The notes below the pieces were generated by a model that saw only the letters and a program-made list of their open reading frames with translations, had not been told where the DNA came from and made no database searches. DNA of 39,508 bases from Candidatus Dojkabacteria bacterium (GTDB lineage Bacteria; Patescibacteriota; Dojkabacteria; B142; OLB20), in contig JBHHUN010000008.1 in NCBI GenBank assembly GCA_046753765.1, positions 1-39,508 on the forward strand. Direction: 5' to 3'. This document shows positions 771 through 14,423 of the stretch, piece after piece. How positions within the stretch are numbered: position 1 is the first letter of the stretch; every line of letters starts with the position of its first letter. Made by a program: the position numbers and the translations under genes.

Positions 771-2501
771 ATGAGGCAGCTACTAAGGCTGTTCTACCAG
801 TTTAACCTTCGTTATAAAAAGGCCTTCATCAGCGGGTTAAGTTTGACTGTGCTGGGCGCAATCGCCTCTAACTTCTCAAATTTCTTTTATAAGTTTTTCG
901 TTGATTCTCTGCAGGGATTTAAGCTTGAAGATACGCTGATAATCCTAGGTGGACTTGTTCTGGTGAGAATAGTGGTCCTGATCCTTCAGAATACTGCTGA
1001 CATAGTTAGCGATATCTTCATTATCCGGGCAGCACGCGATGTAAGACTTAAAGTATTCTCACATCTACACAAACTCGATTTCAGCTTCCATGCTAACAAA
1101 CACAGTGGTTCGCTGATTTCTGCAATGAAGAGAGGCGATGGGGCCTTCTTTAGCTTCAATATGCAAATCAATCGCAATCTTCTCAGAGTAATTATCGATT
1201 TCGGCTTCATTGTAATCACATTTTCATTGATTGATGTCAGGTTCATGTTCGTGGTACTTGCGATAGTCGCCGTCAATCTAATTATCGCACGATTCCTGGT
1301 AAGGCTGAACATTGTTAAAAGAAAGCTGTTAAACAAAGAGGAGGACGACATCACTGCAATCATCGTCGACAATATGATCAACTACGAAACCGTGAAGTAC
1401 TTCGCCAAAGAGGGATTCGAGGAGAAAAGAATGGAAGATCAGTATAGCAGATGGTACACGGTGATTTGGGAATATGCAAACACCTTCCGACTCATAAATG
1501 TTTCAACAGGATTTCTCTCGATAGTTGGATCAGCAATCGTGATCCTTTTGGCTCTGTTCAAAACAACGGCTGGAAACATGTCACTTGGCGAATTTATTTT
1601 AGTGGTTACATTCCTAGCCACATTCTTTCCTAGACTTACCGAAATGATCTATCAGTTTCGCGAGATCGCGAAGCACTACACTGATCTCGAGAAGTACATT
1701 GGACTTCTTAATGAACCTGTTACTGTCGTCGAAGCTAACAATGCCCTAACCCTCAAAACTATCAAGGGTAAGATCCAATTTAAAGATGTTCACTTCAAAT
1801 ATCACAAAAGAGAGAATATTCTCAATAACTTTAATCTGGTCATTAAGCCTGGCGAGTCGGTTGCATTTGTCGGAGCATCGGGTGCCGGAAAAACAACACT
1901 CGTTAAACTTATTCTCAGGTTCTACGACATTGACAAGGGCACAATCCTGATTGACGGAAAAGACATCAGCAAGGCGACCAAGCAAAGCCTTCGTAATAGC
2001 ATTGGAATAGTCCCGCAAGAGCCAGTGTTGTTTAACAACACCATTGCTTACAACATAAGCTATGCAACTACTAAGGCAAACAAGAGTGGAATAGTGAACG
2101 CTGCAAAACTGGCAAACCTGCACGATTTTATCGACTCCTTGCCAGAGAAATATGACACTTTTGTTGGGGAACGAGGTATAAAGCTTTCCGGCGGACAGAA
2201 ACAACGGCTCGCAATCGCGCGGATGTTCATCGAAGATCCACCAATTATTGTCTTTGATGAAGCTACCAGCCAGCTGGACTCTGAGTCAGAGAAACTCATC
2301 CAGGACGCATTCTGGAGAGTTGCAAAAGATAAGACAACGATTATTATCGCTCACAGACTTTCAACTATTATGAAGGTCGACAGGATTATTGTCCTCAAGG
2401 ATGGGAAGATAGTTGAACAGGGTAAACATGAAGAACTAATCAAAAAGAAAGTCGGGGTCTATAAGGGGTTATGGGAGTTACAGCGCGGGGGGATGATATA
2501 A
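771..2501 (+). CDS. ABC transporter, fused permease/ATP-binding (ATM1/MsbA-like exporter)
   Basis: N-terminal TM helices, Walker A GASGAGKT, LSGGQKQR signature, DEATS, IAHRLST; start may be 699. Confidence 0.92.
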   Translation: MRQLLRLFYQFNLRYKKAFISGLSLTVLGAIASNFSNFFYKFFVDSLQGFKLEDTLIILGGLVLVRIVVLILQNTADIVSDIFIIRAARDVRLKVFSHLHKLDFSFHANKHSGSLISAMKRGDGAFFSFNMQINRNLLRVIIDFGFIVITFSLIDVRFMFVVLAIVAVNLIIARFLVRLNIVKRKLLNKEEDDITAIIVDNMINYETVKYFAKEGFEEKRMEDQYSRWYTVIWEYANTFRLINVSTGFLSIVGSAIVILLALFKTTAGNMSLGEFILVVTFLATFFPRLTEMIYQFREIAKHYTDLEKYIGLLNEPVTVVEANNALTLKTIKGKIQFKDVHFKYHKRENILNNFNLVIKPGESVAFVGASGAGKTTLVKLILRFYDIDKGTILIDGKDISKATKQSLRNSIGIVPQEPVLFNNTIAYNISYATTKANKSGIVNAAKLANLHDFIDSLPEKYDTFVGERGIKLSGGQKQRLAIARMFIEDPPIIVFDEATSQLDSESEKLIQDAFWRVAKDKTTIIIAHRLSTIMKVDRIIVLKDGKIVEQGKHEELIKKKVGVYKGLWELQRGGMI

Positions 2502-2581
2502 GTTCGAGGTAACGACACGAAGTACTTGGTATCAAATAGCAAGTTCTGTAAACTAAACACATAAATTCACCACACTCCACT

Positions 2582-2956
2582 ATGGCAAAATCTATTGCTG
2601 AGCTTACCCGCATCATTTGTAATTTCACTGAAGAGAGGGGATGGACTAATAATGATCCTAACCAGATTCTCTCATCAATTTTTATCGAGCTGGGAGAGCT
2701 TGCCGAGCATTATCAATGGCAGTCCGAATTTACGAAGCTATCCGCTTCTAAGAAAAGAGAAATTGGTTATGAGTTTGTCGACGTCATATTCTATCTATTC
2801 AAACTTGCAGAACGATCTGGAATTGACATTGAGAAGTACTTTGACGAAAAAGTTCCAAAACTGGAAAAGAAATTCCCTGTTGGTATCGATACTATTGGCT
2901 ATAATAAGGTGAAGCGTGAATACAGAAAGAAAGGGCAAAACAAGTTGTACACATAG
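2582..2956 (+). CDS. MazG-like nucleotide pyrophosphohydrolase
   Basis: FTEERGW, ELGELAEHYQW and EFVDV motifs. Confidence 0.8.
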   Translation: MAKSIAELTRIICNFTEERGWTNNDPNQILSSIFIELGELAEHYQWQSEFTKLSASKKREIGYEFVDVIFYLFKLAERSGIDIEKYFDEKVPKLEKKFPVGIDTIGYNKVKREYRKKGQNKLYT

Positions 2957-2964
2957 TTTGTAAA

Positions 2965-3022
2965 TGAGTCGGGCGAGACTCGAACTCGCAACCAATCCCG
3001 ACTAGGGTCGGGACTGCTCTAC
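2965..3022 (-). repeat. tRNA-Lys-derived copy with the anticodon arm replaced by a palindrome
   Basis: 2965-2996 is identical to 3284-3315; then cccgac-tagg-gtcggg replaces ggcttaaaaggcc, followed by actgctctac. Confidence 0.9.
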
Positions 3023-3262
3023 TAATTCACTCACCTTCTTCCTGCTCTTCCATCTTTTGATCTGAAGCTCTCGCTTTTTGGCTTCGGTTTGCGAAACAAT
3101 TTCCTCTGAATACACTAACTCCCAATCTCCTGGTTGTTTCCGTGTGTACTTACTCTTATGAAGTCCTTTCTGATGCTCTGACAACCGCTTCTGAAGGTCA
3201 GTAGTGCTTCCGATATAGTACTTGTCTATGACAGCATTGTAGAGGATATATACGTGGAAGAT
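3002..3262 (-). CDS. Small GIY-YIG nuclease (UPF0213-like); start codon uncertain
   Basis: HVYILY..YYIGSTTDLQKRLSEH..SKYT..W.LVYSE..EAKKRELQIKRWKSR; the expected start position reads ATC and the in-frame TTG at 3310 lies inside the tRNA. Confidence 0.88.
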   Translation of the reverse strand: MFHVYILYNAVIDKYYIGSTTDLQKRLSEHQKGLHKSKYTRKQPGDWELVYSEEIVSQTEAKKRELQIKRWKSRKKVSELVEQSRP

Positions 3263-3283
3263 CTTAATGAGGTAAAAAATAAG

Positions 3284-3355
3284 TGAGTCGGGCGAGACTC
3301 GAACTCGCAACCAATGGCTTAAAAGGCCACTGCTCTACCATTGAGCTACCGACCC
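3284..3355 (-). tRNA. tRNA-Lys(TTT)
   Basis: GGGTCGG...CCGACTC-A, anticodon arm GTGGC-CTTTTAA-GCCAT, TTCGAGT; no encoded CCA. Confidence 0.95.
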
Positions 3356-3578
3356 AATGACTCATGATTTTTTACTCCATTATTCTTTAAAGATCTCTAA
3401 CTCGCTTCCAATCCCGACTAAGGTCGGGACTGCCTATCCACTAACCCTACCGACCCAATGACTCATTTATCTTTTACTCCATTATTCTTTAAAGATCTCT
3501 AACTCGCTTCCAATCCCGACTAAGGTCGGGACTGCTCTACCATTGAGGCTATCTATTCCGACTTGTCGGAACCGACCC
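3346..3578 (-). repeat. ~102-bp tandem direct repeat containing two pseudo-tRNA-Lys modules and three palindromes
   Basis: 3346-3433 is nearly identical to 3447-3535; palindromes at 3412-3429, 3514-3531 and 3556-3571. Confidence 0.9.
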
Positions 3579-3579
3579 A

Positions 3580-3936
3580 CTAGTAAATCGCATTCTTAAT
3601 GTGCTTTAGTTTATCAATCGAACCTGAACTGGCTACCACTCCAACAAAATCAATTCGCCAGTCAGCATCCTGCATCTCATTCCTCATCATCCAAACCCTG
3701 CACGTCTTTATTAGTGTCTGTCGTTTCTTGCTCGTGATCGTCTGCTCAAGCCTGATATAGTTCTCATTCTTAAGACTTTTTACCTCAACAAACACCAATT
3801 CACTTTGTTCTCTTGCAATTATATCAATTTCTCCACCCCTGATGGTAAAGTTGCGCTCAATTATTTGATATCCTGCCGAGCGCAGATAGCTTGCAACCTT
3901 TCCTTCAATCTGTTTTCCCCTCTTCCTTTTATTCAT
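3580..3936 (-). CDS. yraN: YraN/UPF0102 family endonuclease
   Basis: ERNF..GGEIDIIA..LVFVEVK..WRIDFV; typical position after rnhB. Confidence 0.88.
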   Translation of the reverse strand: MNKRKRGKQIEGKVASYLRSAGYQIIERNFTIRGGEIDIIAREQSELVFVEVKSLKNENYIRLEQTITSKKRQTLIKTCRVWMMRNEMQDADWRIDFVGVVASSGSIDKLKHIKNAIY

Positions 3937-4579
3937 TAATACCTATCTTTAGCTGAGACAACATCTCACTTATCGGCTTAAAGCTCTTTCTGTGCAGCTC
4001 AGATGCACCGTGAGTATCGAGAGCTTTTAGATGATGTGGCGTTGGATATCCAACGTTACTGTTAAATCCGTAGTGACGATAGTCTTTGTGTAGATCACGC
4101 ATTAATTTATCCCTGAATACCTTCGCCAGTATTGATGCACTAGCGATCGAATAGTGCAGCATATCGCCACCAATGATCTGCATGGTATTCTCACCAAAAT
4201 TGGTGGCAAACCTACCATCAATTAGGAAGAACGTTTCAGGTGATTGAAAATTCTCGATAATTTCAAAGATCTTCCGCTCGACTGTTTTGCCAACTCCTGA
4301 GGTATTGATGCATTCAAGCCCCCCTGCGAGAGTAAGATGCTCGTCATCACTTAGAAGGCATTGGAGCTTTTCACGCTTCACTCGTGTAAGTCTTTTCGAG
4401 TCGTCTACCCCACGTCTGATCTTAGAGGATGTACCAAAAACAAAGCCACTCACAACTACTGGACCGGCCCAGGCTCCTCTGCCAACCTCATCAATCCCCA
4501 CAATTCTGGAGTATCCTTTTCTGAGTAGTTGAAGTTCGAAGCTACTTGTCAGCCTTCTCTTTTTTTTCGGCTTTGGCAT
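3929..4579 (-). CDS. rnhB: Ribonuclease HII
   Basis: [37 protein letters not shown] motifs; start at ATG 4579 is inferred. Confidence 0.93.
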
Positions 4580-12840: not shown

Positions 12841-12927
12841 GCAGACGTGGCGGAATCGGTAGACGCGCTACCTTGAGGGGGTAGTGGGAGCAATCCCGTG
12901 GAGGTTCAAATCCTCTCGTCTGCACCA
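12841..12927 (+). tRNA. tRNA-Leu(GAG)
   Basis: GCAGACG...CGTCTGC-A-CCA, anticodon arm CTACC-TTGAGGG-GGTAG, long variable arm; TGTTATAAT upstream. Confidence 0.95.
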
Positions 12928-12950
12928 TTAGGGCAAATGAAACATGCAAA

Positions 12951-14261
12951 ATGTCTAAGTTAACGATCAAATCGTTTAAAAGTAGTGCTGAAAAGATCTT
13001 TGCTGATAGAGCACTTCTATTGCATATCGTAGTTGTTGCCGGTTTCTGCCTCTCCTTTATTGTTTTCACCTACATTTACAGGCTTCCCTCTATCAAATAT
13101 GACGCTCAAGGATATTTAAACACTGCAACGAACCTTATCGACTACAAAAAAGGAGGTGCATTTGTAGTTTTATTAGCCCCTTTCATAAACACAGGCTTTG
13201 AAAGCTACTGGGCAGCACTTAGCATTAATCTGCCGTCCTGGATTCTGATAGGTTTCACTTTTTGGATCCCTTCTAAATATGGGATTGACAAACGAATTCA
13301 ACTACTAGCCACTCTCCTGTTAATACCTATTGGTTTCTGGGCAACGGGTATCTCGCATGTCACTGTGACAGAGATTCTTCATATTGCACTCATCCTTTTT
13401 GGAGTCACACAACTATTCAGCTATTTCTACTTCAAAACTAAATTTGCACTGATATTCTCTGTATTTTCACTCGGATTAGGACTAAGTACTCGTCTACAAT
13501 CTTGGCCGGCTTTCTTTATTGTTACACTTCTTACTGGAGTCTTGTATCTGAGAACAAAAAGAGCTGGCATAAACAAACAGGCGATCATATTAGCAAAACT
13601 ATTTATTGCGATGGTAATCGTATTGACTTCTTCATTTCTCATCGAAACATCACTAAGAGAGTACTCGCGGAAAGATGACTGGTTCAAGGTATATGGTAGA
13701 GCAACTATATACACAGGACTGTTCTCCACACAGTGCGGCGAATTCAGTAAAACGGCCATAGTTAAGCTCAGGTCGGAGATTGACCTCACCATAACTGAGA
13801 TCTTTCAAAAAAATCTCTCCGAAATGGGTCCACACAAAGTAGCTTCAGTGTTCGTATGCAAGTTTAACAAGTTCTTTGAGACCAGCGGATATTCTTTCAC
13901 AAACATGGAACAGGTACGTGTTGAGGCCAAGATCGGAAGCCCGCTAGATGCCCGGGCCACCTTGCTCGATATGGCTGCACACATCGAAAACTTTCTAATA
14001 AGAAGCCTTAGATTTGGACAATTTATCCTCCTCATTTTTCCTGCATTAGCAATACTTGGAATTAAAGAATTCGAAAGGTTTAAAAACAAACACCTGCTTC
14101 TTGCAATTGCTGTACTAGGGAGCTACTTCTGTTTACTAATGCTACTTGAGTTAAGCTCAAGATACGTGATCCCACCAACAATATTTACTACACTTATCCT
14201 TTTGTACGGGAATAATAAGCTGAAGATCCCACCATCGAAAAAAACTCTCCGTGGGCGTTAA
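12951..14261 (+). CDS. Polytopic membrane protein, possibly a GT-C glycosyltransferase
   Basis: Many TMs, YDAQGY after the first TM, late RY(V)IP motif. Confidence 0.6.
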   Translation: MSKLTIKSFKSSAEKIFADRALLLHIVVVAGFCLSFIVFTYIYRLPSIKYDAQGYLNTATNLIDYKKGGAFVVLLAPFINTGFESYWAALSINLPSWILIGFTFWIPSKYGIDKRIQLLATLLLIPIGFWATGISHVTVTEILHIALILFGVTQLFSYFYFKTKFALIFSVFSLGLGLSTRLQSWPAFFIVTLLTGVLYLRTKRAGINKQAIILAKLFIAMVIVLTSSFLIETSLREYSRKDDWFKVYGRATIYTGLFSTQCGEFSKTAIVKLRSEIDLTITEIFQKNLSEMGPHKVASVFVCKFNKFFETSGYSFTNMEQVRVEAKIGSPLDARATLLDMAAHIENFLIRSLRFGQFILLIFPALAILGIKEFERFKNKHLLLAIAVLGSYFCLLMLLELSSRYVIPPTIFTTLILLYGNNKLKIPPSKKTLRGR

Positions 14262-14346
14262 CATGCAGTCATATCGAACAGAGTCCTGTTTCATCTTGCA
14301 TGCTTATTTTGCTATAATCGGCTTACGTTTTGACAATCTGGCTATT

Positions 14347-14423
14347 GGGACCGTAGCTCAACTGGTTAGAGCACTCGCCTGTCACGCGAGAGGCTGCGAG
14401 TTCGAATCTCGTCGGTCCCGCCA
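14347..14423 (+). tRNA. tRNA-Asp(GTC)
   Basis: GGGACCG...CGGTCCC-G-CCA, anticodon arm CTCGC-CTGTCAC-GCGAG. Confidence 0.96.

Follow-up and report, generated by a model that had tools for sequence, protein, structure and literature searches.

Minimal GIY-YIG nuclease genes beside tRNA genes and hairpin-bearing tRNA copies in Candidatus Dojkabacteria and other bacteria

The stretch analyzed here (the window) comprises 39,508 nucleotides (nt) of contig JBHHUN010000008.1 from a Candidatus Dojkabacteria bacterium (assembly GCA_046753765.1). It contains a minimal GIY-YIG nuclease gene (3002–3262, minus strand; PF01541) set between an intact tRNA-Lys gene and an incomplete copy of that gene, in which a hairpin takes the place of the anticodon arm. 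The unit, hereafter the cassette, is read as a widespread selfish element because the same layout occurs at many tRNA genes in several phyla. The intact tRNA-Lys(UUU) gene (T1; 3284–3355, minus strand) is the sole functional copy; it matches the Rfam tRNA model RF00005 with 75.1 bits (E 3.4e-16), is given the anticodon ttt by ARAGORN, and folds as a cloverleaf. The partial copy (copy C, or T2; 2965–3022, minus strand; repeat family D1) consists, in order, of the 3′ strand of the D-stem, the hairpin, the variable loop, the T arm, and the 3′ acceptor strand. Positions 2965–2996 of copy C are identical to 3284–3315 of the tRNA-Lys gene (32 nt, 100%), and the 15-nt anticodon stem-loop is exchanged for TCCCGACTAGGGTCGGGA (plus strand, 2996–3013). 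This hairpin, TCCCGAC-N4-GTCGGGA (2996–3013, no strand assigned), was identified by pattern count and by fold: the pattern has three matches in the window against 0.01 expected, and the fold z-score for 2965–3030 is −4.85. The D-stem part CTGCTCTAC (3014–3022) comes after the hairpin, as it would in tRNA-Lys. The last seven codons of the nuclease frame overlap copy C, so that the C-terminus V-E-Q-S-R-P is read from tRNA-derived and hairpin sequence, and the stop codon TAG (3004–3002) lies in the hairpin loop. The first-pass annotation of this DNA had described the 32 identical nucleotides, the exchanged arm, the origin of the last codons, and the position of the stop codon, and all of these are confirmed.

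That annotation covered 2965–3355. Its observation was real, but it missed two further hairpin-bearing units upstream, both of them 5′ halves of pseudo-tRNA-Lys on the minus strand. Unit B (3395–3456; repeat families D1–D3) has a diverged D arm, a hairpin (3412–3429), and a degenerate start of the T arm. Unit A (3497–3578; delimited by repeat analysis) has a hairpin (3514–3531) and a degenerate T-arm start. The two units are alike over 89 nt at 96.6% identity, the spacer that follows Unit B (3356–3394) repeats the leader of the intact tRNA-Lys gene, and the hairpins of copy C and of both units each fold as a 10-bp stem. Read along the minus strand, the order is YraN (3936–3580), Unit A, Unit B, intact tRNA-Lys, GIY-YIG frame, and copy C, followed by a MazG-like gene on the other strand. 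The UPF0102/YraN gene (3580–3936, minus strand; PF02021, E 6.8e-23) lies outside the cassette and, as the conserved upstream neighbor of tRNA-Lys, was used as a synteny anchor. Unit A starts 1 nt past the YraN stop codon and thereby occupies the native position of the tRNA; in relatives with an empty site the intact tRNA is found there, at 1–6 nt. The 5′ end of the native tRNA is therefore now part of a pseudo-copy, and the working tRNA lies approximately 220 nt further on.

The nuclease frame (3002–3310, minus strand) matches PF01541 with 63.4 bits (E 2.5e-17) against a cut-off of 22.6 bits, and extends from stop to stop over 3002–3334. There is no ATG, GTG, or TTG between the 3′ end of the tRNA (3284) and the conserved N-terminus, and the sole canonical in-frame start is a TTG at 3310–3308, inside the tRNA T arm. 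It had been claimed that the gene begins about 20 nt after the tRNA. The conserved N-terminus does lie 21 nt after it, but the codon there is ATC (3262–3260), which aligns with the ATG of all close homologs and is not a canonical start. If this ATC is the start, the protein has about 85–87 residues. Given the ATC at the start position, translation may begin at a rare start codon, or the gene may be decaying or freshly inactivated, and this copy of the cassette may thus be a decaying one.

Seven residues (Y6, Y17, G19, R27, H31, E66, and K70) are invariant in the 31 clade B proteins (clades defined below), the window protein included. We take these to be the GIY-YIG catalytic set, from what is known of I-TevI and UvrC, and their invariance argues for an active nuclease. 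The closest proteins of known structure are UPF0213 protein BH0048 (1zg2, E 5.6e-16), 1ywl (1.2e-13), and SLX1 (7cq2, 7.6e-9), with I-TevI reaching only 1e-4; by sequence similarity, the protein is of the UPF0213/SLX1 type. Its Pfam matches are limited to GIY-YIG and T5orf172. Relatives are 79–100 residues long, their C-terminal tails being read-through of tRNA sequence, and since the catalytic domain spans almost the entire protein there is no room for a DNA-binding domain. No NCBIfam family scores above its cut-off, the group I intron endonuclease model TIGR01453 reaching 27.6 bits against 56.05 over the N-terminal 35 residues only. A collection of 50,697 phage records gave two weak matches only and no sign of phage carriage.

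The genes neighboring the locus encode, by Pfam, an ABC transporter, the MazG-like protein, UPF0102/YraN, RNase HII, L19, a helix-turn-helix protein, and RecX. No integrase was found among these Pfam-checked neighbors, in agreement with the first-pass annotation, and the insert measures only about 320 bp. A scan of 2900–4000 for sigma-70-like promoters found no separate one, and the single terminator-like match is the tRNA T arm. The Rfam tRNA model matches the intact tRNAs only, with no match to hairpin copies at E ≤ 1 in 2400–4200 (copy C included) or at E ≤ 0.01 in ten other loci. An imperfect inverted repeat surrounds the intact tRNA-Lys, pairing a trailer arm (3265–3280) with a leader partner (3367–3382) over 16 nt at 88% complementarity (no strand assigned). 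It may be a processing stem, and similar leader-trailer complementarity is seen in relative G021. Unit A contains an additional small hairpin, TTCCGAC-TT-GTCGGAA (plus strand, 3556–3571), directly after the acceptor 5′ strand; a tRNA-Met copy from Chitinophagales (L124) has a TTCCGAC...GTCGGAA stem where its anticodon arm would be.

Misassembly had been named in the first-pass annotation as a possible source of the repeats. Reads were checked as Logan 31-mer unitigs of four DNA runs from one sample of one study, the only runs listed as containing this stretch; no RNA run was among them. Unitigs from all four runs tile the region with 0–4 differences, and the piece bearing the frame has a depth of 17.1 against 12.1 and 15.9 for its flanks, or 30.3 against 26.3 and 27.3. 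This is a check of consistency only, because 31-mer unitigs cannot bridge a 32-nt repeat and so leave the order of the pieces and the variants undecided. The stronger argument, which makes misassembly unlikely, is recurrence: cultured Bacteroidota have this architecture in their finished chromosomes. The unitig common to Units A and B (3370–3433) has 2.1–3.4 times the flank depth in runs X1 and X2. This depth is compatible with at least two units; it may reflect variation in unit number within the population or a contribution from other organisms.

The link to tRNA genes was followed in 41 genomes, the window's own (G000) and 40 relatives. A protein search gave matches in 31 of them, of which all but about four matches were fetched, and a profile built from the fetched matches yielded 110 GIY-YIG frames; tRNAs were called by ARAGORN. 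The nearest tRNA lies within 60 bp on the same strand for 40 of the 110 frames, at 61–300 bp for 12, and beyond 300 bp for eight, and no tRNA is present within the 650–1500 nt fetched per side (less at contig ends) for the other 50. By chance, 1.4% of 260-bp intervals in the window's own genome are expected to have a tRNA within 60 bp on either strand. Among the 40 adjacent frames the tRNA is downstream in 26, the stop codon often lying 7–54 nt inside it, and upstream in 14, with gaps of 5–30 nt.

A quick LG+G4 tree of 103 rows and 98 columns, from which frames below 75 residues were left out and in which many forks lack resolution, splits into two halves, clades A and B (SH-aLRT 90). Clade A (49 rows) combines a YhbQ-like type marked by GKGSKYVRSR, present at about one gene per genome, with a multi-copy type. 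None of its rows is tRNA-adjacent, and the three that lie at 150–273 bp from a tRNA are all on the opposite strand. Clade B, to which the window protein belongs, includes every adjacent frame that entered the tree (36 of 54 rows); the difference in adjacency gives p = 1.8e-14 by Fisher's test, a value that overstates the case because tree rows are related. Sub-clades follow tRNA identity: Lys-UUU (G000, G013, G021, G007, and G032), Asp, Ser-GCU, Pro, Cys, Glu, and His. Switches of tRNA identity occur, as for Arg-UCU within the Lys-UUU group.

In adjacent loci the frame has an intact tRNA on one side and an incomplete copy of that tRNA on the other, in one orientation throughout. Two arrangements are seen. 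Type I (tRNA, frame, 3′-part copy) is found in the window and in G021, G013, G007, and G032, and Type II (5′-part copy, frame, tRNA) for instance at loci of Arg, Lys-CUU, Asp, Pro, and His tRNAs. Blocks of 27–36 nt match at 100% and end where the anticodon arm begins or ends. T-arm sequence varies from genome to genome, yet each block agrees with the tRNA of its own genome, which points to either independent insertions or continuing gene conversion that never restores the anticodon arm. The frames lack a stop codon of their own and end at a TAG or TAA of the tRNA-like sequence (in the D-loop, at positions 8–10 (TAG), or in the loop), giving protein tails such as SSVG and SSAG.

The first-pass annotation had also suggested a comparison with empty loci, and such loci exist with the same YraN neighbor. 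The YraN–tRNA-Lys order is shared by G001, G002, G003, G006, G007, and G011. The site is filled in G000, G007, G013, G021, and G032 and empty in G001, G003, G006, and G011; in G002 and G022 it holds a footprint only, a solo 5′ half with hairpin upstream of the intact tRNA and without a nuclease gene. Empty and footprint calls here mean "not found with this query" in genomes 84–94% complete. The cassette is thus polymorphic for presence and absence at an otherwise conserved site. Occupied tRNA loci vary between species of one genus, and a genome of about 1 Mb may hold as many as about 5–7 copies, spread over different tRNAs. Two further footprints without a nuclease gene lie in the window's own genome: a tRNA-Gly 5′ fragment with hairpin, 58 nt upstream of tRNA-Gly(UCC) (G000:C4:17349–17374), and a 3′ fragment of tRNA-Phe that carries the hairpin in its T-loop and lies between tRNA-Phe and tRNA-Val (G000:C2:17716–17732). 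Tandem copies of the nuclease gene are present in G021 (100% identical), G022, G002 (three copies), G005, and G014. Elsewhere in the window, a 436-residue membrane-protein frame lies between tRNA-Leu(GAG) and tRNA-Asp(GUC) (12841–14423); in G019 (L022) the same two tRNAs enclose a clade B GIY-YIG gene and hairpin-bearing tRNA-Asp copies.

Replaced arms were extracted with 9-nt anchors flanking the anticodon arm of each intact tRNA, a procedure blind to hairpin sequence. The anchor search gave 133 rows, 25 of them second intact arms and 108 differing from the wild-type arm; after removal of one over-long match (>30 nt), the latter reduce to 60 distinct replaced arms. All but two (58/60) are hairpins of the form NN-CCG-N...N-CGG-NN. 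In these 58 the two outer stem pairs are TA/CG (35), TA/TA (15), GC/GC (5), or CG/TA (2), with one mismatch; the pair following CCG is A-T (49), T-A (4), C-G (2), G-C (1), or non-standard (2); and the loop is 3–8 nt long. The exchange is nearly base for base, 15–17 nt giving way to 15–20 nt, in copies of Lys, Asp, Gln, Arg, Val, Met, and Pro tRNAs. The 1.26-Mb genome of the window has five strict copies of the hairpin, four of them at tRNA loci (three at this locus and one between tRNA-Val and tRNA-Phe), and five of its seven hairpins with a stem of at least seven pairs lie within 270 nt of a tRNA gene. The longest TCCCGAC...GTCGGGA palindrome of the genome, with a 9-bp stem, is on a 1.9-kb contig on which no tRNA was detected (G000:C66:1635–1654).

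An invariant core across phyla, combined with compensatory changes in the stem, argues that the hairpin is a selected, structured cis element and not a random or decaying scar. The same two features count against the earlier description of the copy as a scarred target, in so far as a random scar was meant. Three ideas about the hairpin were considered and rejected. Derivation from the tRNA-Lys acceptor stem, with which it has CCCGAC/GTCGG in common, fails since other tRNA types carry the same hairpin without that match; fold-back repair fails on the identical sequence at unrelated tRNAs; and coding constraint fails as the cause of conservation, G007 reading the hairpin in a different frame. 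A second family of GC-rich hairpins, CCTGCCTGC...GCAGGCAGG, occurs in the D- or T-loops of pseudo-tRNA copies at L014, L015, L030, L044, L049, L084, L086, L112, L005, and L019, and is absent from the window's own genome.

A cross-phylum scan (one genome per species; query alignment of six close proteins) returned 427 relatives, of which the best 80 were kept. These are mostly Bacteroidota (Flavobacterium, Pedobacter, Polaribacter, Mucilaginibacter, and Chitinophagales), with some Acidobacteriota and Leptospirales or Spirochaetota and a few candidate-phyla records: Dojkabacteria (the same contig range as G007), Saccharibacteria, Roizmanbacteria, Gracilibacteria, and Campbellbacteria. In 63 of the best 80, a tRNA lies within 80 bp; it shares the strand of the frame in every case and is most commonly tRNA-Val(UAC) upstream. 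At least one replaced anticodon arm is present in 49 of the 80 loci. In Bacteroidota the downstream copy is almost full-length and a terminator follows each tRNA or tRNA-like unit; one Mucilaginibacter chromosome has at least nine upstream units of 77 nt before the intact tRNA-Val. ARAGORN labels hairpin pseudo-copies of Bacteroidota (L155, L156, L159, L168, L169, L131, and L190) as tRNA-Lys(ttt), Ile(tat), Stop(tta), selenocysteine SeC(tca), or tRNAs with 2- or 4-base anticodons. As a small control, 80 loci chosen by YraN among relatives from a metagenome scan (at most 43% identity) gave no replaced arm beside their 14 tRNAs and two GIY-YIG matches. Close and distant relatives of the nuclease thus have tRNA genes, pieces of the same tRNA, and hairpins of the TCCCGA...TCGGGA type at their flanks, an association for which the first-pass annotation had proposed to look.

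The same annotation had proposed a minimal selfish element associated with tRNA genes. This is the best reading of the locus, since homologs are flanked by tRNAs and hairpins, empty sites exist, and an integrase is absent. In the specific form that we favor, with somewhat better than even confidence, it is a homing-type cassette that moves by recombination, uses tRNA halves as homology arms, and leaves one tRNA intact. Here we infer cleavage, mobility, and the role of the hairpin. The nuclease would break the cognate tRNA gene, and the break would be repaired by homologous recombination from a cassette-bearing copy, with the tRNA-derived arms providing homology. The recipient would gain the nuclease gene and the hairpin copy while keeping one intact tRNA. 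Crossover or strand invasion 5′ of the hairpin would produce Type II, and 3′ of the hairpin Type I. Repeated breaks with out-of-register repair might build up tandem nuclease genes and hairpin-bearing tRNA pieces such as Units A and B, by analogy with SegB (discussed below). The nuclease may make or recognize the hairpin, as the first-pass annotation had proposed. The hairpin would be the binding site of the nuclease, a version of the target immune to cleavage, or both; about half of our confidence in the homing cassette goes to the form in which the hairpin is the nuclease's own recognition site.

Several observations weigh against the homing cassette. The protein is a catalytic domain only, without a DNA-binding domain, and does not itself explain target specificity. 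An intact and presumably cleavable tRNA is always found beside the nuclease gene, which is awkward for simple homing. The nuclease gene of the window lacks a canonical start codon. Eighteen of the 54 clade B rows have no tRNA within 60 bp, nine having one at 61–300 bp and nine none, some of these being at contig ends or second tandem copies. Some shared occupancy in close species fits plain vertical descent, as with the tRNA-His sites of G005 and G009 at 95.8% identity. No joint, empty-site form, excised form, or circle junction was seen in the unitigs of the four runs, which break at the 32-nt repeat. Finally, sequence and pairing of the hairpin are both conserved, which an immune scar alone does not predict.

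Two other accounts deserve some weight, though each seems rather unlikely to us. The hairpins could be independent, small, GC-rich mobile palindromes, comparable to mitochondrial GC clusters, that colonize non-essential pseudo-tRNA copies; the cassette would then only make these copies and have no particular tie to the hairpin. The second hairpin family in the D- and T-loops of several relatives' pseudo-copies would fit such behavior, as would the extra TTCCGAC..GTCGGAA insertion in Unit A and the pseudo-tRNA-Phe of the window's own genome with its hairpin in the T-loop. Against this, the exchange of the anticodon arm for the CCG...CGG hairpin is nearly base for base, and the hairpin is not inserted at varied places; it is already present in recent, 100% identical tandem copies, seldom occurs outside tRNA loci in the window's own genome, and is missing at the 14 tRNAs of the small YraN control. 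About as doubtful is a host-beneficial or addiction-type module, in which a hairpin-bearing tRNA-like transcript and the nuclease form a functional pair (a regulator, a toxin-antitoxin-like system, or a defense) placed near a tRNA for co-expression. Conservation of hairpin sequence and pairing across phyla would then be expected, and the strict same-strand orientation, the lack of a separate sigma-70-like promoter at 2900–4000, and the near-full cloverleaf of the downstream Bacteroidota copy, called as a tRNA by ARAGORN, all agree with it. Repeat arrays upstream of a nuclease gene also recall type III toxin-antitoxin loci. Many copies, however, are truncated, lacking the acceptor 5′ strand or the T arm, and so are unable to fold as tRNA mimics; a terminator stands between tRNA and nuclease gene in Bacteroidota; and patchy presence, with empty and footprint-only sites and several copies per small genome at different tRNAs, fits a parasite better than a housekeeping function.

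The remaining accounts are much weaker. The direct repeat of the tRNA 3′ part that flanks the insert is what the attL and attR ends of tRNA-integrating islands show, and the locus could on that ground be what is left of an ordinary islet that an integrase inserted into the tRNA-Lys 3′ end, the GIY-YIG gene being residual cargo. We consider this very improbable: no integrase was found nearby, the short insert has the same content in more than 100 loci, the 5′ half is duplicated in many loci, and a conserved hairpin replaces the anticodon arm. It is just as hard to credit that the hairpin copies are functional non-canonical tRNAs, acting in suppression or frameshifting. The ARAGORN labels invite this idea, but the loop beyond the conserved stem varies between 3 and 8 nt, many copies are truncated, and the Rfam tRNA model passes them over at the thresholds given above. 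An assembly artefact from collapsed or chimeric tRNA repeats would be conceivable in a metagenome-assembled genome whose repeats exceed the unitig k-mer. The tiling of the region by unitigs of four runs, the flank-level depth of the frame piece, and above all the finished Bacteroidota chromosomes leave this account with next to no probability.

How a homing cassette with so small a protein would find its target invites speculation. The tRNA arms beside the CCG...CGG hairpin might constitute a swappable specificity module, in which the hairpin, as RNA or single-stranded DNA, is bound as a handle while the 27–36-nt arms base-pair with the gene of the cognate tRNA and guide the cut there. A switch to a new tRNA would then take no more than recombination of the arms. 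We hold this to be improbable. Were it nevertheless true, it would amount to nucleic-acid-guided homing on the GIY-YIG fold, functionally parallel to the transposon-encoded guide-RNA nucleases and unrelated to them, a long shot that we mention for its consequences.

If the homing cassette is real, a common and overlooked selfish element targets tRNA genes in bacterial chromosomes without destroying them. Its carriers would include cultured Flavobacterium, Pedobacter, Mucilaginibacter, and Polaribacter as well as candidate-phyla bacteria, and a role would be gained for one clade of the large "GIY-YIG nuclease family" or UPF0213-like protein group. With a protein of 85 residues, a catalytic domain only, the element would need some way to recognize many different tRNA genes, and the hairpin and the swappable tRNA arms are candidate means. 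Arrays of units would turn tRNA loci into hot spots of rearrangement. In addition, a standard tRNA finder reports hairpin copies as tRNA-Lys, Ile, SeC, "Stop," or undetermined, and these copies probably contaminate tRNA gene sets.

Of the systems with which the cassette can be compared, palindromes that accompany a single nuclease-type gene are also known from repetitive extragenic palindromes (REPs) and REP-associated tyrosine transposases (RAYTs). RAYTs belong to the HUH/Y1 transposases, and REPs occur as many dispersed copies. The first-pass annotation had drawn this analogy, which does not hold: the enzyme of the cassette is a GIY-YIG hydrolase and not an HUH protein, and its hairpin is undispersed and confined to tRNA-derived copies. 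Islands inserted by tyrosine integrases resemble the cassette in having an intact tRNA at one end and a partial tRNA repeat at the other; they differ from it in that the cassette measures about 320 bp, has no integrase nearby, may duplicate the 5′ half as well, and has the hairpin for an anticodon arm. An element in the atp6 gene of Allomyces mitochondria reportedly consists of a free-standing GIY-YIG gene in a fungal mitochondrial gene, carrying a replacement copy of the end of its host gene. As in the cassette, the nuclease gene is said to travel with a part-copy of its target, leaving one gene intact and a displaced fragment behind; the target there is reportedly protein-coding, and the copy without a conserved hairpin.

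Among proteins of known structure, the best sequence matches of the cassette protein are to the UPF0213/YhbQ/YazA and SLX1 group. SLX1 carries a zinc-finger domain and needs SLX4. YhbQ and YazA have been grouped with Slx1, a structure-selective nuclease, in a review (PMC7017083), the accessible part of which mentions no link to tRNA. The YhbQ-like proteins of the genomes studied here (about one in each) also stand apart from the window protein, belonging to the clade without tRNA-adjacent rows. PMC8565304 mentions only a different GIY-YIG exonuclease. Searches of the full-text literature (subscription journals and supplementary files lying outside the search, so that a prior description is possible) found no published account of GIY-YIG genes with duplicated tRNA pieces or the hairpin, and neither Rfam nor NCBIfam has a family for the architecture.

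The nearest precedent, as far as the accessible part of its description goes, is SegB, a free-standing GIY-YIG homing endonuclease in the tRNA gene cluster of T-even phages (PMC13096335). There, nuclease activity together with homologous recombination leads to tandem amplification of the tRNA–segB segment, the reported cut falls within tRNA-containing sequence, and SegB is called "frequently associated with tRNAs" (PMC13096335). A GIY-YIG gene among tRNA genes is thus common to both systems. SegB is phage-borne, whereas the cassette protein is a catalytic domain of about 85 residues on bacterial chromosomes. SegB is also a longer protein with a DNA-binding part. Homing endonucleases of the I-TevI and Seg types carry a DNA-binding or specificity domain in general, and none is found in the cassette proteins. 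In the accessible account of SegB, no counterpart is described for the partial tRNA copy with a hairpin in place of its anticodon arm. A free-standing GIY-YIG homing gene linked to tRNA genes is, then, already known from phages; what appear to be new are the domain-only nuclease, its chromosomal location in several phyla, and the duplicated target with a hairpin exchanged for the anticodon arm.

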